A DNA stretch of 64,000 nucleotides, taken from an uncultured Gammaproteobacteria bacterium. Lineage in GTDB: Bacteria; Patescibacteriota; Patescibacteriia; Magasanikbacterales; UBA922. The position numbers were made by a program, and so were the translations under genes. The stretch covers positions 7,307 to 71,306 of the forward strand of contig CAYQNA010000003.1 in NCBI GenBank assembly GCA_964418775.1. The letters are read 5' to 3'. The stretch's first letter is position 1, and every line of letters begins with the position of its first letter. Positions 44,170 to 60,148 of this stretch are shown here, piece after piece. Under the pieces are notes generated by a model. That model searched no databases. It had not been told where the DNA came from and saw nothing but the letters and a program-made list of their open reading frames with translations.

Positions 44170-44976
44170 TTAGAATTCTTTCTGAATATATAAATTCTCA
44201 ATTTCCTCAGCATCATTGGAATTTAAAATTAACTGCCTCCAAAAATCATACGGAGTATACCCTTTTTTATTCTCTAATGAATCCTTGGCATGAGGTACAC
44301 CATGAGCTACAGTGTTCTCCATATCAAAAGGTTCTGACCAAGCAAACATTGGATGGTCATTATTCAGCAATTCAACAAACTCAGGGAACTTTTGTGGAAA
44401 ATTTGCAAAGAAATTATGGTAGAAAGTTACCGGTAGATCAATTAATCCCAACTCTTCGTGAGTGCTATGTGTAGTAAACGCGCGATTACCCGCATAAACC
44501 TCATGCAAGGCCTCGCCAAATCCAGCAAAACGATCCACATACTTGAGGAACTTTGCCTCAGTTGTTTGAAGCTCTTGGGACTCCTTTAAAAGATCTTCGT
44601 AGGAATAATTCATTAGTTTGTACGGAAAGCGAGCAGACATTGCCGCGATTGCGTTTTGCTCTTGATTAGCAACTTCAGCAAGCTGGGCTGGTGCCATTTT
44701 AATTTTGTGACCTGCCTGCACATCGCCCATCACAATTTCCATATCATCGTGAACTGCGGCCATTAATTGAACTTTTGTTGAATCAAAACTACTGCCGAAT
44801 ACCTTTTCTGCAAGTGGCAAAATACTCTGGAGCAACCAAAGAACATGTTTAGAATGAGTAAACAAATTAGTACGATAATACATCGGACTATAAATGTGGT
44901 AACGCGTTACCTGGCGCAGGTCGTGCTCGCGGCCTTCAAAGTTCGCAAAAATCTCAGGATAGTTTATTTTTTCCAT
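44170..44976 (-). CDS. HD-domain phosphohydrolase (YfbR-like)
   Basis: HSKHV...AAVHDDMEIVMGD HD motif. Confidence 0.5.
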   Translation of the reverse strand: MEKINYPEIFANFEGREHDLRQVTRYHIYSPMYYRTNLFTHSKHVLWLLQSILPLAEKVFGSSFDSTKVQLMAAVHDDMEIVMGDVQAGHKIKMAPAQLAEVANQEQNAIAAMSARFPYKLMNYSYEDLLKESQELQTTEAKFLKYVDRFAGFGEALHEVYAGNRAFTTHSTHEELGLIDLPVTFYHNFFANFPQKFPEFVELLNNDHPMFAWSEPFDMENTVAHGVPHAKDSLENKKGYTPYDFWRQLILNSNDAEEIENLYIQKEF

Positions 44977-46078
44977 AGACTTGTTTGGAGAGTAGCATGA
45001 TTGGGAACACAAAAAACAGTACTGCCATAATCAAAAATGCTTCGCGGAGGTGACCTGTATACACAATTACTGATAAAGAAACGAGCGTAATTGTACGGCC
45101 AATGTTCAAATATAATTCGCGTGAGATCCAGGTAATTGACGCATTAGTAACATTATCAAGCAAAATATTGGAACGGATTGGGTTAAGCAGATTGTTCAGA
45201 AATTGATACGCAATAATGATAATCACGGCCAATCCTAGTGACTGCACAAAATATAGTGAAGTCATAAGGATACCGATCACAACGGACAATGGCCAAATAA
45301 ACTCCAGACGTTTTTTGGTTCGGTCAGAAATTCGGGCCAACCGGAGTGATAGCACCACTGACACCAGTGCAATCATGGACAACACTTGCCCAAAGTTAAA
45401 TTCACTTTTTATAAACGTGAGTAAATACAGCGCAATTAAAAGGCCGGATGTACTTTGCAATGCACCGTCAAGCATGGAAATCACACGAAAATTTTTGATG
45501 TGGTTAGTGATCTCAGCACGTGTATACGGATATTCTACGCGTTTAACCCATACCGTCAGAATCAAAGCCAGCACTAAAATCGCCAGGCCAATTGCAATAA
45601 ACGTGTGCAAACCAAATTGGCTCATAATCCAACCGCCCGTCATTGGCGCGAGTACACTGACCGCGCTACCAATCCCCCAATACAGAGCCATGCGTTGCAT
45701 TTTCTTTTCCTGGTGTGTATTCTCGAAAAACAAAATATTGTATGGCACGTAAAACAAGATGCCACCGCTGAGTTTGAGGAGTGTGTACGGAAACAAAATA
45801 TAGAGCGGCGCAATGGGGGTCAAAAGTAATGGCAGGCTAAGTAAAACCAGGCCCAATCCAAGCTGCATGCCACGCTGAGTGGTAAAACGACGCTTACTAA
45901 GTAAAAACAATGCACTGAGCCCATACCCTAGCCCCTCGGCCAAAAGCACGAGCCCAAAATTCAAATTATTTTTAACAAAATACGCAAACAAAATCGCCAA
46001 AAAACCAGACTGCACTGTGCTATAGGCAATGAGCACCCACCAGACTTGAAATTTTGACTTCAAATTCATAATGCACAT
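44954..46078 (-). CDS. MFS transporter
   Basis: 12 predicted TM helices. Confidence 0.7.
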   Translation of the reverse strand: MCIMNLKSKFQVWWVLIAYSTVQSGFLAILFAYFVKNNLNFGLVLLAEGLGYGLSALFLLSKRRFTTQRGMQLGLGLVLLSLPLLLTPIAPLYILFPYTLLKLSGGILFYVPYNILFFENTHQEKKMQRMALYWGIGSAVSVLAPMTGGWIMSQFGLHTFIAIGLAILVLALILTVWVKRVEYPYTRAEITNHIKNFRVISMLDGALQSTSGLLIALYLLTFIKSEFNFGQVLSMIALVSVVLSLRLARISDRTKKRLEFIWPLSVVIGILMTSLYFVQSLGLAVIIIIAYQFLNNLLNPIRSNILLDNVTNASITWISRELYLNIGRTITLVSLSVIVYTGHLREAFLIMAVLFFVFPIMLLSKQVYGKNKLS

Positions 46079-46102: not shown

Positions 46103-46127
46103 CAAAAAGACCTTGTGGGTCTTTTGT
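46103..46127. terminator. Terminator hairpin AAGACC-TTGTG-GGTCTT + T-run, downstream of intron-containing tRNA
   Basis: Seen in sequence. Confidence 0.5.
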
Positions 46128-46134
46128 ATACGAG

Positions 46135-46550
46135 CTCGACGGGTCGGATTCGAACCGACGACCAATTGGTTACACGTTATCCTTGCTTTCGCAAAGCGTG
46201 GACTATATCTTCACCCACGTCATAATCTGGTCAAGCCAGAAACGTTAGGGTGCGAAGCGCTTCCCCCGATAAATCGAGGTACTCCCATATGGGATAGTCT
46301 CTGAACCTTCAATGCCGTCCAGACAGTCATAAAGACAAATCCTTCTCAGCAAAGCTTGGCTGCAGATTGCCATATCCCGAACAAGTCGGGCTTTAGGTTT
46401 CCTGATCCGGTTAACCGGATTTTTCCAAATAAATGGAAAACAGTTCACTTCGTTTTTCATCCGAGCATTACTGCCCGGAGCTGCTATTCAGCTCTCTCGC
46501 GAGAGGAGCCGTAGCTACAGCCAACTGCTCTACCACTGAGCTACCGTCGA
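46135..46550 (-). tRNA. tRNA gene (U1-A72, G73) interrupted in the anticodon loop by a group I intron; spliced anticodon loop CUGUUAA (Asn, GUU) favoured, CUUGUAA (Thr, UGU) not excluded
   Basis: Intact acceptor/D arm (TCGACGG TA GCTC AGTGGTA GAGC) and T arm/acceptor (GTCGG TTCGAAT CCGAC CCGTCGA G) separated by ~340 nt carrying group I core elements; coordinates +/-2. Confidence 0.7.
46173..46516 (-). ncRNA. Group I intron (approx. boundaries) within tRNA
   Basis: Conserved R element GGTTCAGAGACTA and S element AAGATATAGTCC (P7 pairing GACTA/TAGTC), Q-like AATCTGCAGCCAAG; candidate IGS GCAGCU pairing exon GGCUGU with U.G at splice site; ends in G. Confidence 0.65.
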
Positions 46551-46635
46551 ATGATTGGTTTAAAGAACTGGCAAAAGTATATCAAAATCTTAAGAGGGTG
46601 TCAAGCACGGCAAAAAGGCAGAATTTTCTCTTTAC

Positions 46636-47106
46636 TTAGCCTATTTTAATCAAAAAATCAGGAATGATTCCCAAGGCAATGTAACGCGCCTGTAATTCTG
46701 CTGGTAAATATTGGAAATCGCGAATTAAACCACGGCACAACAGACTGCCGCACTCACACGTCATTTCATTCGCATCATTGTACATGGTAGTGGAATAATC
46801 GTAAGTGATTTGTTCACCCGCACCAATGTCTTTGATAGCAATTAAATCCGCCAGCTCGCCCACCACGCGATACCCGGCATTTGGGTCGCACGAGTGATTG
46901 ACATAATCATCAACCTCACCCGACGAACCTAAAAATGTGCGCTCCCCGATTTGCAAACAATGCTCGTCCTCGTATGAGCCATCCTCAAAATCATCATAAT
47001 CCAAAATTGGCCCCTTGGCTTCGAGGATTTTCTCACCTTTGGCAAACGGCCTGGCCGCAAACACGCCCTGGCCATATTTGGTTTGTTTGGTGATAATATC
47101 GGGCAT
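46636..47106 (-). CDS. SET-domain protein (putative lysine methyltransferase)
   Basis: NHSCDPN, ITYDY and post-SET CECGSLLCRG motifs; start set at MPDIITK because track ORF (TTG 47175) would overlap tRNA-Gln. Confidence 0.65.
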   Translation of the reverse strand: MPDIITKQTKYGQGVFAARPFAKGEKILEAKGPILDYDDFEDGSYEDEHCLQIGERTFLGSSGEVDDYVNHSCDPNAGYRVVGELADLIAIKDIGAGEQITYDYSTTMYNDANEMTCECGSLLCRGLIRDFQYLPAELQARYIALGIIPDFLIKIG

Positions 47107-49948: not shown

Positions 49949-50011
49949 TTTCTCACACCCCGTGAGTGGTTTACAGGGATACTAACGAAACACCGACTCA
50001 AAGTCAATCGC

Positions 50012-50039
50012 TTGACCAACCTCATGGGGCCTGTATACT
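50012..50039 (+). promoter_or_regulatory. Promoter TTGACC-16-TATACT with ATG 7 nt downstream (leaderless mRNA for 50046 gene)
   Basis: Seen in sequence. Confidence 0.45.
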
Positions 50040-50045
50040 AATCGC

Positions 50046-50747
50046 ATGAAACACCAATATTTTGGGGATAAAACGGATTACATTAAACACGGCCTCCTGC
50101 GGGGCTTATGTCGTGCCAACATCCCACTTGGCATTCACTGGACCCTGACGCCTGATGACAAAAGTTCAGATGGTTCACGCACAACATACCTCAAAAATCC
50201 CGATCAATGGCGGCACTACGACCCGCCGTTGTTTGATGTCATCCAAAAAAGTTTACAAAATAACCACCGCAATTTATTAATTTTACAAAAACACGCTCTG
50301 CTAACAGGCGCAAATGAGTGTTTTGATGAATGGACGGCGAATAAAGAATCTCGTCAAAAAAGTTTAACCTCTTTTACAAAGACTTTACCAAAAAATTCAC
50401 TTATATTTTTAGACCCAGATAACGGGCTCGAAACTAAATCAATGAAACCAGGTTCTGAGGCTTGTAGTAAATATGTTTATTTTGATGAGGTTGCGCAACT
50501 CTGGAAACAAGGATTCTCACTAATTCTCTACCAACATTTTCCACGTGTTTCTCGGGAAAAATATCTTAACGAACGCTTCACACAATTAGAAAAATATACG
50601 CCAAAAGCAAATCAATTTGCGCTGATTACTAGTCATGTCGCATTTATTGTTTTAGCCCAACCAAACAAAAAGAAAATCGATTCCACAATAAAAAATCTTG
50701 TGACCCATTGGCATCCCCATGTCACTATTCACTCACCAGTTTCATAG
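50046..50747 (+). CDS. Hypothetical protein with distant RlmJ/DUF519-like features (degenerate catalytic motif DPDN)
   Basis: N-terminal YFGDKTDYIKHGLL resembles RlmJ HAGNHADVLKH; LIFLDPDNGLE resembles LIDPPYE region; weak. Confidence 0.3.
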   Translation: MKHQYFGDKTDYIKHGLLRGLCRANIPLGIHWTLTPDDKSSDGSRTTYLKNPDQWRHYDPPLFDVIQKSLQNNHRNLLILQKHALLTGANECFDEWTANKESRQKSLTSFTKTLPKNSLIFLDPDNGLETKSMKPGSEACSKYVYFDEVAQLWKQGFSLILYQHFPRVSREKYLNERFTQLEKYTPKANQFALITSHVAFIVLAQPNKKKIDSTIKNLVTHWHPHVTIHSPVS

Positions 50748-50749
50748 TG

Positions 50750-50822
50750 CTCCCAGGGCTGGACTCGAACCAGCGATATCCGCGTTAACAGCGCGGTGTT
50801 GTACCAACTCAACTACCCGGGA
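50750..50822 (-). tRNA. tRNA-Asn (anticodon GUU), U1-A72, G73
   Basis: Acceptor TCCCGGG/CCTGGGA, anticodon loop CTGTTAA, T loop TTCGAGT. Confidence 0.85.
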
Positions 50823-50853
50823 ATAAAAAACTCTCCTGTGCGGAGAGTTTTGT
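50823..50853. terminator. Bidirectional terminator AACTCTCC-TGTGC-GGAGAGTT with A/T runs
   Basis: Seen in sequence. Confidence 0.5.
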
Positions 50854-50969
50854 GTGTGCAAAAAATCACCGCTTAGGCAGAGTAATTATTGTTATTATTA
50901 GTGAATGAGTGCTTCATACTTATATACTATATCATGCCTTAAAATTTATGCAACTGGTTTATCCACAAC

Positions 50970-51671
50970 CTACTTCCAGGCTGTGGCTGACGTAATCTTA
51001 ACCGGCAACAAGTCTTGCGAAGATATAAAGTAGAGTTCATTTGTATTAAATTGTCCTTTTTCACTAACAACAACTTTTGAGTCAACAATCTTTACAAATT
51101 TATTGCGCATAATGTCGTATTTTCCGCCAAGATACATGTGTTCCATTTTCTTGAACGCCCGCGTTGCTTTTTGTTCTGCCTCTTTAAGCGATTTAGCAAA
51201 CACAAGATATGCGCGACCCTCTTGCTGCTGAGTACCATAACTTTTCCCTTTTGTTTGATACACAAACAATCCGGTAACCAAATGCCAGTCCGACTCTCGT
51301 TTAGGTAATTTGGTAATTGTAATCTGTTTGCGTCCGCGTATTTTATCAATCTGCACAACACGAATTGCCGCGCGGCTGTTAATCAATCTGTGCAAGTTTG
51401 GACCAGTGATTACCGCTTTAAAGATATCTGGCTCACGATGGTTCTCATCACGCACGAACACATCCTCTAAAGCAAAATTGGCCATTGTTTTTTGCAACGA
51501 ATCTTTGAGAAACTTTTCGGTAAACTTTTTACGCTCCGGTACAGTCAAGGGCACCATTTTTTTAACCGATGGCCACTCTAAGAAAACTGTGACTTCAATT
51601 TTGGTACTTAAACTCTTTAAATCTTTTTCTTTTAGACCGTACAAATCTAACCCCCAGATTGGAATTTGCAT
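50970..51671 (-). CDS. Hypothetical protein, paralog B of tandem pair (unknown family)
   Basis: Aligns along full length with 51685-52383 product (IPIWGLDLYGLKEKDLK...KKMVPLTV.ERKKF...YLVFAKSLKEAEQKA). Confidence 0.4.
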   Translation of the reverse strand: MQIPIWGLDLYGLKEKDLKSLSTKIEVTVFLEWPSVKKMVPLTVPERKKFTEKFLKDSLQKTMANFALEDVFVRDENHREPDIFKAVITGPNLHRLINSRAAIRVVQIDKIRGRKQITITKLPKRESDWHLVTGLFVYQTKGKSYGTQQQEGRAYLVFAKSLKEAEQKATRAFKKMEHMYLGGKYDIMRNKFVKIVDSKVVVSEKGQFNTNELYFISSQDLLPVKITSATAWK

Positions 51672-51684
51672 ATAAAAAAGTAAT

Positions 51685-52383
51685 TTACAACCATGCATTT
51701 TGCGCCGTAATTTTACCCGGCTCGACGATACGGCTCAAAATTATGTTTGACTCTGACTTGTTAATTATTTCATTATCTGTACCTGCATAGCGAGATTCCA
51801 GAAATTCAACAAAGGTATGTTTGACTAATTGATACCTCTGATCAAAGTACACTTTTTCCATTTTTCGAACCGTCTTTTTGGCCCTACGTTCGGCCTCATT
51901 ATACGAATGCGCAAATACCAACAGGACTTTTTCCTGTCGCATATGTACCCCTTTATTTTTGCCCCTTACCCGCTCTTCAAAAAGAGCAATAAAATAAAAC
52001 CAGCTTGTTGGAAAAATTTGTTTGGTTTTAATTGGCTTCATTCCGATAATCCTCTGTACAGCCAATGATTCAACTCCAGTGGCTTGATTCAATATTTGAT
52101 ATAACGTCTGCCCCGAAACTACAATCGTAGCTTTTCTTAAATTAAGAGGCCAACCGTCCTCGCCGTGACGAGCTTCAACGAGCGGAAAGTTTGATACTAA
52201 CTTTTGATATAACGCATTGTAATATTTGTGCGCAAACTTTTTTCGCTCTAACACAGAAAGCGGAAGCATTTTTTTAAGCGGCGGCTCGGCAAACGTAACA
52301 AAAAGAGTAATTTTGTTATCAACATTCTTTAAATCTTTAACTGTAAGACCGTAAACATCCAAAAAGTAGATAGGAATTGACAT
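51685..52383 (-). CDS. Hypothetical protein, paralog A of tandem pair (unknown family)
   Basis: IPIYFLDVYGLTVKDLK...KKMLPLSVLERKKF...VLLVFAHSYNEAERRA; no recognisable catalytic motif. Confidence 0.4.
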   Translation of the reverse strand: MSIPIYFLDVYGLTVKDLKNVDNKITLFVTFAEPPLKKMLPLSVLERKKFAHKYYNALYQKLVSNFPLVEARHGEDGWPLNLRKATIVVSGQTLYQILNQATGVESLAVQRIIGMKPIKTKQIFPTSWFYFIALFEERVRGKNKGVHMRQEKVLLVFAHSYNEAERRAKKTVRKMEKVYFDQRYQLVKHTFVEFLESRYAGTDNEIINKSESNIILSRIVEPGKITAQNAWL

Positions 52384-56160: not shown

Positions 56161-57300
56161 TTACTCAAGCCAGGCACGAAGGCCGGACAGTTGGTGAGTC
56201 CAATTGAATTCAGCGCGCATGCGGGCCTGGCCAGCGCGGCCGAGTTGTTCGCAAAGTGCTGGGTCATGGAGCAAATTCACAATTGCCGCACTAATTTCGG
56301 CTTTTTGATTATACACATCGAAAATAAAACCGGTTTGATTGTGTTTAACACCCTCCTCCACCCCACCACTTTTACCCGCAATAACCGGCAGTCCAACGGC
56401 GGCGGCTTCCAAAAACACCAAACCAAGCCCTTCTTCTTGTCCATTATCCGGATGTGTGAGGAGGACAAAAATGTCTGCCAAATGATAGTACAAATTTAAA
56501 TCTACGTGCGCAACTTCGCCCACAAAGCGCACGGAATTTTGCAAGCCGTGTTTTTGAATTAGGTTTACGACTTCAGCAGTTTTGGGACCACTGCCCACAA
56601 TAATCCACACGGTGTTCGGGTCGTCTTTGAGCACAGTTTCCAAAATTGGAATCAGGTGTGGAAAACCTTTACCATCAACCAAACGCGCGACCGTAAGGAG
56701 CACACGCTTACCTTCGAGTGCGAACTTAGTGCGAACTCTTTCCAAATCAATTGATGCAGGCGGTGTGTAAAATAATTCATCAGGGCATGGGTAAATCACG
56801 CCAGATTTAGTTTGAAATTCAGGGACGCGGGCGAGGGCGCGCGACAAAAGCGACTGACTATTAAACACGACGGCGTCAGCACGGCGCAATACTTGGCGCA
56901 GACGCTTGGTTTTCCAATTCGTGCGCGTCGCGAGTGCAATGTCTGTGCCATGCGAGAACACGACAAATTTAACTTTGAGCAAACGCGCAGCGAGTTGGGC
57001 CACATACCCAACCGGCAACACATGATGAACCAAAATGCGTTCGACGTTTTCTTTTTTTACCAATTGTTTAACCTCGCGCCACAAACGCCACCAACGAGGC
57101 CACACAAATGCAGGATACAAAAATGGTGCACGAATGACACGGTACGTCTGAGCCTTGTCCCATTCTTCATTATCATGCGCGGGTGGAGCAAGGACAATTG
57201 TCTGTTCGGCTGGCAGCGCACTTGCGAGCGCGTGCACATACGTGGCAATCCCACCGACCTGTGGTGGATATTCAAGTGAAATTATAAGAGTTTTTTTCAT
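56161..57300 (-). CDS. Glycosyltransferase family 4
   Basis: EGLGLVFLEAAAVGLPVIAGKSGG (E-x7-E motif). Confidence 0.8.
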   Translation of the reverse strand: MKKTLIISLEYPPQVGGIATYVHALASALPAEQTIVLAPPAHDNEEWDKAQTYRVIRAPFLYPAFVWPRWWRLWREVKQLVKKENVERILVHHVLPVGYVAQLAARLLKVKFVVFSHGTDIALATRTNWKTKRLRQVLRRADAVVFNSQSLLSRALARVPEFQTKSGVIYPCPDELFYTPPASIDLERVRTKFALEGKRVLLTVARLVDGKGFPHLIPILETVLKDDPNTVWIIVGSGPKTAEVVNLIQKHGLQNSVRFVGEVAHVDLNLYYHLADIFVLLTHPDNGQEEGLGLVFLEAAAVGLPVIAGKSGGVEEGVKHNQTGFIFDVYNQKAEISAAIVNLLHDPALCEQLGRAGQARMRAEFNWTHQLSGLRAWLE

Positions 57301-58769
57301 ACAGTAGGCTGGGTTGGGCGACGGTACAATTTGCTAAATAATTGTTGCCAATGTGTTGGTGCAATCACGCGAAGCACGACAATAAAGAGCGCGTAAATCG
57401 CTGATCCAATGACACCCACGGCAATAAAATGCAATTGATTCCGCAAAATATAGAGCGCCGCTGACATGGCTACACCAGCAAAGATAATTTTTATGATGGC
57501 GAGTAAAATCGTACCGTGTTTAATCGCCGCGTCACGCGGCATCAGCATGTATCCACCTGCAGTCAAAACCACATTACCAATGAGCGTGGCCCACGCTGCG
57601 GCCACAGCGCCAAAATGCGGAATAAAATACCAATTCAAACCAGCGTTTATGACGAGCACAATACCGGTTAGCATAGTTTGACGGGTCTGACGGTTGCTCG
57701 CATTGAGCAAGGCCCCAACTGGGAACGAGGCAAAGGCCCACGCCAAACTAAGGCCCAAAATTTGCAACGGAACAATTGCACCGCGATACTCTTCGCCAAA
57801 CAAAAACAGAGTAAGTGGTTCGGCTAACCAATATAAACCTAATGTCACTGGCAGTGCAATGAGCGTCAAATACACAAAACTATCGGTAAACGCTTGCGCA
57901 CATTTAGCTTTGTTCGTTTGGTAAAATTCACTGAGGCGTGGATACAGAGCCGCGACCAATGCAAGTGGAATAAATTGAAACGCAAACGTGATTTTTGACG
58001 GTGTGCTGTACAGCGCAGTCGCGGCATTGCCCGCGAGACGGTTGAGCATGAGCACGTCGAGGTATGAATAAATGCGGTTAAAAATTGCGGCCAAAGCAAA
58101 TGGAATTACGGCAATTACCAAACTTTTAAAATGTGAGCCGGGCCAACGCCATTTGACCACCACACCGGCGCCACGCAATTGGTACCAGGCATACAGCGCG
58201 TTAGACATAGACGCGACCAAAAAACCAACCAACAAAAGCATGACCGGACCGCGCCACAGCCACAGAGCCGCGCCACCAATTACAAGCGTAATGAATTGAC
58301 TCGCAACCATACCAACCGCTTCATACTTTAATTCCCCGCGCACACGCAGCGCGCCATACAATGTTAGGTGCAGCGAATCAAACAACATTGTGAGGCCAGA
58401 CACTGCAGTTAGCAGCAAAAATTCCGGTCCAAACCCAGACCAATGTACGGCGAGCAATAAACCAACATATGAGAGTAGGCCAGTTACCAACTTTACGGTG
58501 AGCATATTGCCCAATGCAACCGGTAGCCGGCTTGGGTCACGGGCCGTGTCACGAATAAACACGTTTGTCAGTCCCAAATCTACAAACACTACAGCAATCG
58601 TTGTTGTGGCGAGCACTGACGTATACAAACCAGTTTGTTCTGGTCCGAGCAGACGCGCGACTAATGCAAAATACACGAGCGAAATCACCTTTTGCCCAAT
58701 CGAAGCCGCGAGCATAAAGCTCGTGTTTTTGAACAGTGAAGCCATAGAAATATGGCTTAATAATACCAT
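57297..58769 (-). CDS. MOP-superfamily polysaccharide flippase (Wzx-like)
   Basis: 12-14 TM, polysaccharide biosynthesis protein pattern; start set at MVLLSHIS (58769) because upstream extension runs through a terminator and the GC-rich insert. Confidence 0.6.
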   Translation of the reverse strand: MVLLSHISMASLFKNTSFMLAASIGQKVISLVYFALVARLLGPEQTGLYTSVLATTTIAVVFVDLGLTNVFIRDTARDPSRLPVALGNMLTVKLVTGLLSYVGLLLAVHWSGFGPEFLLLTAVSGLTMLFDSLHLTLYGALRVRGELKYEAVGMVASQFITLVIGGAALWLWRGPVMLLLVGFLVASMSNALYAWYQLRGAGVVVKWRWPGSHFKSLVIAVIPFALAAIFNRIYSYLDVLMLNRLAGNAATALYSTPSKITFAFQFIPLALVAALYPRLSEFYQTNKAKCAQAFTDSFVYLTLIALPVTLGLYWLAEPLTLFLFGEEYRGAIVPLQILGLSLAWAFASFPVGALLNASNRQTRQTMLTGIVLVINAGLNWYFIPHFGAVAAAWATLIGNVVLTAGGYMLMPRDAAIKHGTILLAIIKIIFAGVAMSAALYILRNQLHFIAVGVIGSAIYALFIVVLRVIAPTHWQQLFSKLYRRPTQPTV

Positions 58770-58800
58770 CAATCCCCTGCCCTGTACATAATATAAACTA

Positions 58801-58834
58801 AAAACAAAAACAACTCTTGGTAAGAGTTGCTTTT
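58801..58834. terminator. Terminator CAACTCTT-GGTA-AGAGTTG with U-run on minus strand (ends 2OG-oxygenase transcript)
   Basis: Seen in sequence. Confidence 0.5.
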
Positions 58835-58927
58835 GACTGACTCCGACGGGCTGCGGTGGTTCCCAAAGGAGCCAGCGGCGTATGCCGTCGGAGATGCGCG
58901 CGAAGCGCCGTCCTCCTGTTGCTGATG

Positions 58928-60031
58928 TCAAATCAGCGCCGTCATGTCCCCGTCGGTGATGGGGATGAGCTCATCGCCCGCGACCTCGCGGGTGGCGAGA
59001 CCAATGTCGATGAGGACCTCCCAGCTGCGCGTGCCCGCGAGCGTGGGCGGATACCTCTGTGACACATTGTCATGGTCCACGGGCGCCTCCTCCATGACGC
59101 CCATGACCGCGTCGGTATGCAGATGCAGGAAGAGCGAACGTGCAACACGGAACGGCGAACGTCCATCCGCCACTGCCCCGATCACGGAGTTCGCCGCTCG
59201 CTGCGTGCACGAGACCTCGTGGTACCCCGCGAGAAAGTACCCACCGGTCACGTACTCGAGTTGCTGTCCGACCTGCACCAGGAAGCACCCGGGCGGGATC
59301 GAGACCTCGAGCTTGGTGCCGTCCCGAAGCCAGATCACCAACCCCGGGAACGTCGAGCGGTCGTGCGCCGTCAGGAACCCGAAGTCGTTGTGGCAGGCGT
59401 TGATGACGTCGCCCACCTTCAACGTGCTCAGGTCAATGGCGTTGAGGGCCAGGATCGTTGCACCGTCGATGAGTCGATGCGTGAGCCGTCCCGCCTTGAG
59501 CCCGAGCCCCCGCTCCACCAGCATCGTGCAGGTGAGAGAGGTGTTGATGAGCACCTGAGCCTGCCGGTCCATGAGGGACGGCCACAGGTCGGTGAACACG
59601 GCCGGCACGACCTGTTCCTCGCGCTTGTTCAGCTTGGGGAACCGCGTCTTGGCCGGCTGCGTACCCGCGCGCCACATGAACCGCATCTTGGGATCCGCGA
59701 ATCCGGCGGGGCACACGGTCGGGTAGTTCTCAGGGTTGAGCGTCCGGAGGAACTCCGCGCACTCGACCGCCTTCTCGACGCCCGGGGGCGTCAGTCCGAC
59801 CTGGTACCCGAGCTCCTCACGCACATCTGACGCCAGGAGCTCCCACGGCTGCGCGAAGTACTGCTGAGCCATGGTCCGGACCTGCACGTCCTCGCCAGAC
59901 GTGAGAACGCGCGGATCCCGCACGATGACCGCACCGAACCGGTGCAGGGCATCGACGAGCGTGCGCGCCGTGTCTAGGTCATCCTCACCCGCCAACGTGC
60001 TGGTGAGGTCGATGATGGGAAGATCCTTCAT
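58928..60031 (-). CDS. 2OG-Fe(II) oxygenase family protein (isopenicillin N synthase-like); GC-rich (~63%) outlier
   Basis: N-terminal DIOX_N-like LPIIDLTS...FGAVIVRDPRV, H-x-D (CHNDFG) iron-binding motif; GAGGTG SD before MKDLPI start; many overlapping GC-artefact ORFs. Confidence 0.65.
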   Translation of the reverse strand: MKDLPIIDLTSTLAGEDDLDTARTLVDALHRFGAVIVRDPRVLTSGEDVQVRTMAQQYFAQPWELLASDVREELGYQVGLTPPGVEKAVECAEFLRTLNPENYPTVCPAGFADPKMRFMWRAGTQPAKTRFPKLNKREEQVVPAVFTDLWPSLMDRQAQVLINTSLTCTMLVERGLGLKAGRLTHRLIDGATILALNAIDLSTLKVGDVINACHNDFGFLTAHDRSTFPGLVIWLRDGTKLEVSIPPGCFLVQVGQQLEYVTGGYFLAGYHEVSCTQRAANSVIGAVADGRSPFRVARSLFLHLHTDAVMGVMEEAPVDHDNVSQRYPPTLAGTRSWEVLIDIGLATREVAGDELIPITDGDMTALI

Positions 60032-60110
60032 TGTCACCTCTTGCGCTTGAGACCACTGCGGTCTGGCTTTTAAATACCATAAACAAGCCAAAAACGCAAC
60101 TAAAAAAATT

Positions 60111-60148
60111 TGAAAACAAAAAATCCCCCACCACATGGGCGAGGGATT
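60111..60148. terminator. Terminator AATCCC-N16-GGGATT + U-run on minus strand downstream of rpsI
   Basis: Seen in sequence. Confidence 0.5.

Follow-up and report, generated by a model that had tools for sequence, protein, structure and literature searches.

A Patescibacteria tRNA-Asn(GUU) gene split between U35 and U36 by a subgroup IA-like group I intron

The classical group I introns of bacterial tRNA genes belong to subgroup IC3, and interrupt tRNA-Leu(UAA) at position 34/35, tRNA-fMet at 33/34, and both tRNA-Ile(CAU) and tRNA-Arg(CCU) at 36/37. Subgroup IA is marked by two additional hairpins, P7.1 and P7.2, between P7 and the 3' strand of P3 (P3'); the classical IC3 tRNA introns do not have them. 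Phage introns of subgroup IA, for example that of T4 td, carry the P7.1/P7.2 extension and self-splice in a reaction initiated by guanosine. These td-type introns sit in protein-coding genes, often together with endonuclease ORFs.

The preprint of Williams (2020; bioRxiv 10.1101/2020.01.27.920355) extends the bacterial tRNA intron classes from the four classical ones to 21, and presents a seed alignment that includes an "Asn.4Ug" intron (seed name Pam37.Asn.4Ug). Nakagawa et al. (2026, mSystems, PMC13011429) report that introns at the 35/36 site fall mostly into subgroup IA (25 of 28) and usually contain no endonuclease gene, four long ones with HNH genes excepted. Such introns are often missed or labelled tRNA-Thr, and both ARAGORN and tFind are reported to mis-call them as Thr(UGU). 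Precise self-splicing in vitro was demonstrated for one Saccharimonadia tRNA-Asn intron (35/36) and one tRNA-Asp intron. The ligated tRNA-Asn product was sequenced and has the 35/36 junction; changing the terminal guanosine (omegaG) from G to C blocked exon ligation. In both test cases, the genome had no further copy of the tRNA gene concerned. The mean length of 333 bacterial tRNA group I introns was 257 nt.

The stretch of DNA analysed here (the window, 64,000 nucleotides) contains what is very probably a functional tRNA-Asn(GUU) gene of Patescibacteria (CPR), into which a self-splicing group I intron of 344 nt, with no homing endonuclease gene, is inserted between U35 and U36. The gene is on the minus strand, with U1 at 46550 and the discriminator base G73 at 46135: a 34-nt 5' exon, the intron (46516-46173), and a 38-nt 3' exon. 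The interruption follows the fourth nucleotide of the anticodon loop. The gene and its surroundings comprise these features:

46636 to about 47106, minus strand: gene for a SET-domain protein, adjoining the split tRNA
46576 to 46604, minus strand: TTGACA and TATACT spaced 17 nt apart, a promoter-like site whose -10 is TG-extended (11/12 consensus positions matched; presumed function)
46517 to 46550, minus strand: 5' exon, tRNA-Asn positions 1-35 (sequence; ARAGORN -i)
46173 to 46516, minus strand: group I intron of 344 nt, ending in omegaG (46173) (Rfam RF00028; ARAGORN intron (35,344))
46135 to 46172, minus strand: 3' exon, tRNA-Asn positions 36-73 (sequence; ARAGORN -i)
46105 to 46125, minus strand: hairpin and T run resembling an intrinsic terminator, 10 nt past the tRNA (presumed function)
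44954 to 46078, minus strand: gene for an MFS transporter, neighbour of the split tRNA
50749/50750 to 50822, minus strand: second tRNA-Asn(GUU), uninterrupted and divergent in sequence (ARAGORN; Rfam tRNA model, 67.2 bits)

The 5' exon (UCGACGG UA GCUC AGUGGUA GAGC A GUUGG CUGU) supplies the 5' strand of the acceptor stem, the D arm, the 5' strand of the anticodon stem, and C32 U33 G34 U35. The 3' exon (UAA CCAAU UGGUC GUCGG UUCGAAU CCGAC CCGUCGA G) supplies U36 A37 A38, the 3' strand of the anticodon stem, the variable loop, the T arm, the 3' strand of the acceptor stem, and G73; CCA is not encoded. With introns allowed (-i), ARAGORN calls tRNA-Asn(gtt) with an intron (35,344) after U35. The spliced sequence folds as a regular cloverleaf: acceptor stem UCGACGG/CCGUCGA; D arm GCUC-AGUGGUA-GAGC; anticodon stem GUUGG/CCAAU; and T arm GUCGG-UUCGAAU-CCGAC. 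The assembled exons show the features of tRNA-Asn, namely anticodon GUU, U1-A72, and G73. Default ARAGORN, which has no intron option set, does not call the split gene in the window.

The Rfam group I intron model (RF00028, Intron_gpI) matches 46456-46180 on the minus strand along its entire length (model positions 1-253 of 253), reaching 54.5 bits where the gathering score is 50 (E = 4.6e-11 for the whole window). It is the sole non-tRNA Rfam match within 64 kb. The excess over the gathering score is modest. The original prediction had placed a tRNA, split by a group I intron of about 340 nt in the anticodon loop, at 46135-46550, and both the covariance-model scan and the intron-tolerant tRNA scan bear it out: these positions are the exact tRNA ends, and the tRNA arms, the U1-A72 pair, and the G73 that it quoted all appear in the ARAGORN cloverleaf. 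Its strand needed correction, to minus; read that way, its sequence claims hold. Chance resemblance to a group I intron was also considered, and was rejected in view of the Rfam score above gathering, the expectation of 0 chance matches in the window to a combined S-element/3'-exon pattern, and an MFE z-score of -4.5.

The promoter-like match is a strong one of the sigma-70 type, lying upstream of U1 by about 26 nt. With promoter-like and terminator-like sites on its two flanks, the split gene appears to be a transcription unit of its own. Its neighbours are ordinary cellular genes: besides the MFS transporter and the SET-domain protein, these include tRNA-Gln, FtsX, and FtsE, with MurF, DinB, GltX, ClpB, SufB, and a NifS-like desulfurase at greater distance. 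Among named homologues, those nearest to GltX belong to Candidatus Magasanikbacteria and further Patescibacteria (about 60% identity), which places the host among the uncultured Patescibacteria (CPR).

A scan of one genome per GTDB species, with the pattern S-element ... G|UAA ... T-arm, returned at least 120 related loci. Nearly all of those listed come from Patescibacteria MAGs; a few listed bins are labelled Gammaproteobacteria, Omnitrophota, Elusimicrobia, or others. Because the pattern demanded G before TAA, the universality of omegaG at -1 is partly built in. Of the at least 120 loci, 85 were parsed as split tRNAs; 35 of those listed stayed unparsed and were left out of the counts. In every parsed relative the 5' exon ends CUGU and the 3' exon begins UAA; C2-G71 and G73 are likewise present in 85/85, and U1-A72 in 84/85. 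The introns range from 185 to 630 nt, and 66 of them share with the window an architecture denoted "type A"; 14 have a second architecture, and five are other variants. By blastn, the window intron matches L099, L038, L035, and L079. These counts suggest that the tRNA-Asn intron family is very widespread in Patescibacteria.

The consensus structure was derived with RNAalifold from 28 short type-A introns, excluding the window (alignment A1), and the P7 pseudoknot was added; the window was then joined by mafft --add and its pairs counted. RNAalifold recovers the anticodon stem, P1, P2, P3, P4, P5, P6/P6a, P7.1, P7.2, P8, P9.0, and P9. Across the 68 consensus pairs, 95.6% of the cells are paired; shifting the 3' partners 1-3 columns lowers this to 36-43%. 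Compensatory changes occur in 45 of these pairs, and the covariation score is 0.538, where shuffles give 0.175 and none of 500 reaches the observed value. P7 is invariant in the family, which fits the structure and gives no covariation information. Of these consensus pairs, 58 form in the window, with P3 (7/7), P4 (6/6), P6, P7 (5/5), P7.1, P8, and P9.0 fully kept, and 68 of the 69 family-invariant nucleotides are retained; the missing pairs lie in variable hairpins or alignment gaps, together with the P1 +1 pair. The predicted fold of the window intron thus contains the group I core P3-P9, including the P3/P7 pseudoknot:

46517 to 46522, minus strand: P1 5' strand, exon G30 G31 C32 U33 G34 U35, pairing with the guide sequence (46484-46479)
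46490 to 46510, minus strand: P1-loop hairpin GGCUCCUCUCGCGAGAGAGCU, lineage-specific (identical in the close relatives L130 and L131; absent from most family members)
46479 to 46484, minus strand: internal guide sequence (IGS) GCAGCU, P1 3' strand (GCAG invariant in alignment A1)
46461 to 46478, minus strand: P2 hairpin CCGGGCA-GUAA-UGCUCGG (family helix 3; compensatory changes in 6/6 pairs)
46446 to 46452, minus strand: P3 5' strand CGAAGUG (7/7 pairs with 46259-46253)
46405 to 46440, minus strand: two-hairpin insertion (UUUUCC..GGAAAA, AUCCGG..CCGGAU) splitting the P4 5' strand, CUG^CAGG
46360 to 46404, minus strand: remainder of the P4 5' strand, P5/P5a, and P4 3' strand, in AAUCUGCAG, the "Q" element (family helices 5 and 6)
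46306 to 46359, minus strand: P6 and extended P6a (family helices 7 and 8)
46295 to 46307, minus strand: R element GGTTCAGAGACTA / GGUUCAGAGACUA, holding the P7 5' strand GACUA (family-invariant)
46264 to 46294, minus strand: P7.1 (UCCCAUAUGGGA) and P7.2 (CCUCG..CGGGG) (family helices 10 and 11, with compensatory changes)
46253 to 46259, minus strand: P3 3' strand CGCUUCG (pairs with 46446-46452)
46212 to 46252, minus strand: P8, extended (family helix 12; 4/5 pairs compensatory, 5/5 formed in the window)
46200 to 46211, minus strand: S element AAGATATAGTCC / AAGAUAUAGUCC, holding the P7 3' strand UAGUC (5/5 pairs with GACUA)
46173 to 46200, minus strand: P9.0 (CAC/GUG), P9 CUUUGC-GAAA-GCAAGG, and the terminal omegaG at 46173 (family helices 13 and 14)

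The elements named from the window sequence at the outset recur in this fold. R and S pair as P7, in columns that are invariant across the family; the Q-like element is AATCTGCAGCCAAG, starting at 46368; and a canonical P3-P7 core folds around R and S. The predicted IGS, GCAGCU, pairs with exon GGCUGU, and the U.G wobble at the 5' splice site is formed by U35 (46517) with a G of the IGS. Of a full P1-P10 model, P1-P9 together with P7.1/P7.2 stand by covariation in the 28 relatives; P10 is weak, amounting to at most 2 bp identified by eye.

In P3, the window has A-U where the family has, near-invariantly, G-C: a compensatory double change. Its extra length lies in the P1-loop hairpin, the two-hairpin P4 insertion, and the long P6a and P8. 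The P4 insertion, whose junction geometry we infer, is kept in L130 and L131 with indels confined to loops, and L019 also has an insertion at that site. The P6/P6a region is the most variable part among close relatives. The pair between intron +1 and IGS -1 is an A-A mismatch in the window and in L079; L130 and L131 share it, as read from the identical sequence of this region.

P7.1 and P7.2, both supported by covariation, stand between P7 and P3', so that assignment to subgroup IC3 was rejected; the predicted structure is IA-like. The intron resembles the classical IC3 tRNA introns in being small, of a self-splicing class, and located in the anticodon loop; in drawing its P1 from nucleotides of the anticodon loop and anticodon stem; and in its conserved R/S (P7) and P4/P6 motifs. 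Most classical ones are likewise without endonuclease genes. It differs from them in insertion position, in the tRNA interrupted, and in having P7.1/P7.2. With T4 td-type introns it shares P7.1/P7.2; unlike these, it lies in a tRNA gene and has no endonuclease ORF. The intron holds a single ORF (71 aa, 46460-46245), which runs across conserved RNA elements and matches nothing in Pfam, indicating that no homing endonuclease is encoded; a mobile intron with an HNH endonuclease ORF was rejected for lack of such a match. At 344 nt, the intron is shorter than the class of more than 500 nt that carries endonuclease genes.

Where the exons are joined determines which amino acid the tRNA would carry. 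In the window sequence alone, two junctions have U before and G last: CUGU|...G|UAA, giving Asn, and CU|...G|UGUAA, giving Thr. Splicing two nucleotides upstream (U33/34) would produce the loop CUUGUAA and a tRNA-Thr(UGU). Either way, the 5' exon would end in U and the intron in G (...ACG|UG|UAA), and ARAGORN -i assigns Thr(tgt) at 62 of the related loci, against 30 calls of Asn(gtt). The comparative data nonetheless favour splicing at 35/36 over 33/34. The IGS core GCAG, invariant in A1, pairs with C32-U35, and C32-G, U33-A, G34-C, and U35.G are each found in 28/28 sequences; U33 is therefore paired with the A of GCAG, and U35 makes the wobble. The intron +1 pair with the base before GCAG covaries (GC 12, CG 9, AU 6, GU 1). 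Two covarying P9.0 pairs stop immediately 5' of the terminal G at 46173. At -3, where the Thr reading needs omegaG, 20 of the 85 relatives have A or U. The tRNA body points the same way: AsnRS recognises G73 as an identity element, while ThrRS relies on G1-C72 and C2-G71, so U1-A72 with G73 fits tRNA-Asn rather than tRNA-Thr under textbook identity rules. Finally, the sequenced spliced product of an intron of the same insertion class, 63% identical to this one, has the 35/36 junction (PMC13011429). Splicing to tRNA-Thr is exceedingly unlikely. The original prediction had preferred Asn(GUU), now supported by both the comparative data and that experimental junction; the Thr(UGU) alternative it flagged proves to be the known mis-call, made by tFind for many published cases (PMC13011429) and reproduced here with ARAGORN -i.

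Compared with the sequences of Table S3 in PMC13011429, the window is 63% identical to the validated Saccharimonadia intron and 67% to a type-A Paceibacteria sequence. It shares with Asn.4Ug and the PMC13011429 introns the tRNA-Asn(GUU) host gene, the 35/36 site, U at -1, G at omega, the phylum Patescibacteria, the core motifs, and the Asn/Thr ambiguity in annotation; judged by sequence, every testable defining feature of the Asn 35/36 class is present. It differs from the published average in length (344 nt, against the 257-nt mean of all 333 bacterial tRNA introns), from published Asn.4Ug-type introns in its lineage-specific peripheral insertions, and from the PMC13011429 test cases in coexisting with an intact tRNA-Asn(GUU).

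Earlier work already covers this intron class, including where it inserts and that it self-splices (Williams 2020; PMC13011429), and the locus opens no new question; its practical value lies in annotation. Standard tRNA annotation misses the split gene, and intron-aware tools often label its relatives tRNA-Thr. Genes missed or mislabelled in this way distort estimates of tRNA complement and genome completeness for Patescibacteria. The locus is also a further well-preserved member without an endonuclease gene, with synteny in two relatives and lineage-specific peripheral insertions.

Established group I biochemistry and the in-vitro splicing of the 63%-identical Saccharimonadia tRNA-Asn intron suggest how the window copy would be processed. 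Transcription of the split gene would start at its own promoter and stop at its own terminator, and the intron would fold into a P1-P9 core with P7.1/P7.2 as in subgroup IA. The IGS would pair with exon G30-U35, placing U35 in the U.G wobble of P1. A free guanosine, bound in P7, would then attack after U35. Next, omegaG (46173), positioned by P9.0, would replace the free guanosine, and the 3'-OH of U35 would attack after omegaG, joining CUGU to UAA and restoring the loop CUGUUAA.

From the adjacent SET protein, homologues were traced to two Logan contigs of related organisms, L131 (SET protein 77% identical) and L130 (67%). In both, a tRNA-Asn(gtt) gene comes after the SET gene and is interrupted at 35/36 by an intron of 346 or 347 nt, and the pre-tRNA is 93% (L131) or 90% (L130) identical to that of the window. 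The P1-loop hairpin and the P4 insertion are common to all three. Pre-tRNA differences are compensatory or in loops. Compensatory sites lie in the acceptor stem (A4-U69 versus G-C), the T stem, P2 (CCUGGUA/UAUCAGG in L130 versus CCGGGCA/UGCUCGG in the window), and P9; the remaining differences are in the P6a and P7.2 loops. The TTGACA...TATACT arrangement also stands upstream of both orthologous genes. The L130 intron scores 48.8 bits on RF00028, just under the gathering score of 50. A tblastn search for synteny with the window among the 120 loci listed found none.

The second tRNA-Asn(GUU) lies 4.2 kb from the split gene. The original prediction had reported this intact gene at 50750-50822, which ARAGORN and Rfam both recover, on the minus strand. 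It had suggested that the split gene might be a second isoacceptor; because the two share the anticodon GUU, it is instead a second gene copy, an isodecoder. No second copy was seen in the 120 related loci listed, each viewed in a short, 8-kb window. Given the intact gene, the cell may not depend on the split one.

The split copy might accordingly be a decaying relic that no longer splices and gives no mature tRNA, with Asn decoded by the gene at 50749-50822. This reading can point to the intact gene nearby, to the missing homing endonuclease, to the large lineage-specific insertions in the P1 loop and within the P4 strand, and to the mismatched P1 +1 pair. Decay is hard to reconcile with the conservation of all core helices and of 68/69 family-invariant nucleotides, or with the presence of promoter-like and terminator-like sites, the promoter motif being itself conserved. 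The close relatives weigh further against it: their pre-tRNAs are 90-93% identical to that of the window beside SET proteins of only 67-77% identity; they keep the insertions; and their changes in the acceptor stem, T stem, P2, and P9 are compensatory. That the RNA structure is far better conserved than the neighbouring protein argues for vertical inheritance under purifying selection. A relic is thus highly improbable; the split gene is real, and looks functional rather than decaying.

Vertical inheritance also bears on whether the intron is a recent mobile invader, or the tRNA and intron a laterally acquired cassette, instead of a vertically inherited resident. Some family members are 510-630 nt, a size at which published ones carry HNH endonucleases (PMC13011429); the family is also found on IMG/VR viral contigs, inside tRNA arrays; and the two tRNA-Asn genes of the window are very different in sequence. 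A distant blastn comparison of the locus with phage GenBank records gave no match. Against recent arrival, the window intron has no endonuclease ORF and occupies the same position beside the same SET gene in two diverged relatives. Moreover, the split gene agrees exactly in anticodon arm and T arm with L032, a Magasanikiibacteriota locus; the host GltX is closest to the same group, and the data therefore fit vertical descent. Recent invasion or lateral acquisition is very unlikely.

A functional split gene leaves room for the intron to be more than a tolerated passenger: splicing could gate the supply of one Asn isodecoder, a reading we regard as highly improbable. The cue could be guanosine/GTP, Mg2+, or a factor that binds the added hairpins. 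The data behind this reading are the insertions in the P1 loop and P4 strand, conserved in two relatives. Its setting is a reduced genome in which two tRNA-Asn(GUU) genes of very different sequence lie 4.2 kb from each other, one free of introns and the other dependent on a ribozyme for its maturation.

Automatic tRNA annotation misnames many relatives of the intron-split tRNA-Asn gene. When ARAGORN was run with introns allowed on the related loci (at least 120, L001-L120), 62 split genes were called tRNA-Thr(tgt), with the junction placed at 33/34, and only 30 were called tRNA-Asn(gtt). Asn-type acceptor and discriminator features are nonetheless present in every split gene that could be parsed from these loci (85 of 85). 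The tRNA-Thr labels on related split genes are a systematic annotation error across public MAGs.

The intron family itself comprises at least two core architectures among the matches listed from L001-L120: type A, in which the P7.1/P7.2 hairpins follow AGACUAUC (67 sequences, with that of the window counted in); and type B, which carries AGACUAGAUACC and lacks a P7.1/P7.2-like pair (14 of the listed sequences). Among the same matches, 23 parsed introns measure 511-630 nt, a length sufficient for an endonuclease ORF.

Group I introns also interrupt tRNA genes on four IMG/VR contigs:

L123, 129-428, (-) strand: group I intron; the split gene is tRNA-Asn(gtt)
L127, 5522-5813, (-) strand: group I intron; the split gene is tRNA-Asn(gtt)
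L122, 6402-6618, (+) strand: group I intron; the host is a tRNA with a G1-C72 acceptor stem
L128, 705-933, (+) strand: group I intron; the host is a tRNA with a G1-C72 acceptor stem

All four introns score 90-96 bits against the Rfam group I model RF00028, and all lie in dense tRNA arrays, each locus having 6-16 tRNA genes. An intact tRNA-Asn follows two genes downstream of the intron-bearing tRNA in both L122 and L128. Related group I introns that fit the S-element pattern of the tRNA-Asn family thus occur also in tRNA genes on phage-like contigs, whose viral label is that of their IMG/VR database listing.

In the window, the interval between tRNA-Gln and the split tRNA-Asn encodes:

46636-47106, (-) strand: SET-domain protein (Pfam PF00856, E = 3.6e-15)

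Bacterial SET-domain methyltransferases are patchily distributed, and homologues of this protein turn up in only a handful of metagenomic contigs. An MFS transporter gene immediately follows the split tRNA-Asn in the window, whereas the corresponding position in L130, a contig from a related organism, holds other genes:

L130, 1242-3513: KAP-family NTPase and serine recombinase/resolvase genes

These genes may belong to an element integrated beside the tRNA gene.

Two stretches depart in base composition from the window's GC of about 47%. GC reaches 58.6% at 58001-60000, where two ORFs lie:

57297-58931, (-) strand: MOP-flippase-like ORF, whose end falls in the GC-rich stretch
58928-60136, (-) strand: 402-aa ORF, with no match in an NCBIfam search

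The minimum, 39.6% at 50001-52000, adjoins the intact tRNA-Asn(GUU) gene (50749-50822), whose D arm, GUUG-AGUUGGUA-CAAC, is atypical. This stretch encodes:

50046-52383: three ORFs of 233, 242 and 232 aa

A family search with the 233-aa ORF returned no match. The other two are paralogues (33% identity) with weak DUF4288 matches. The low-GC stretch beside the intact gene could be an acquired segment.
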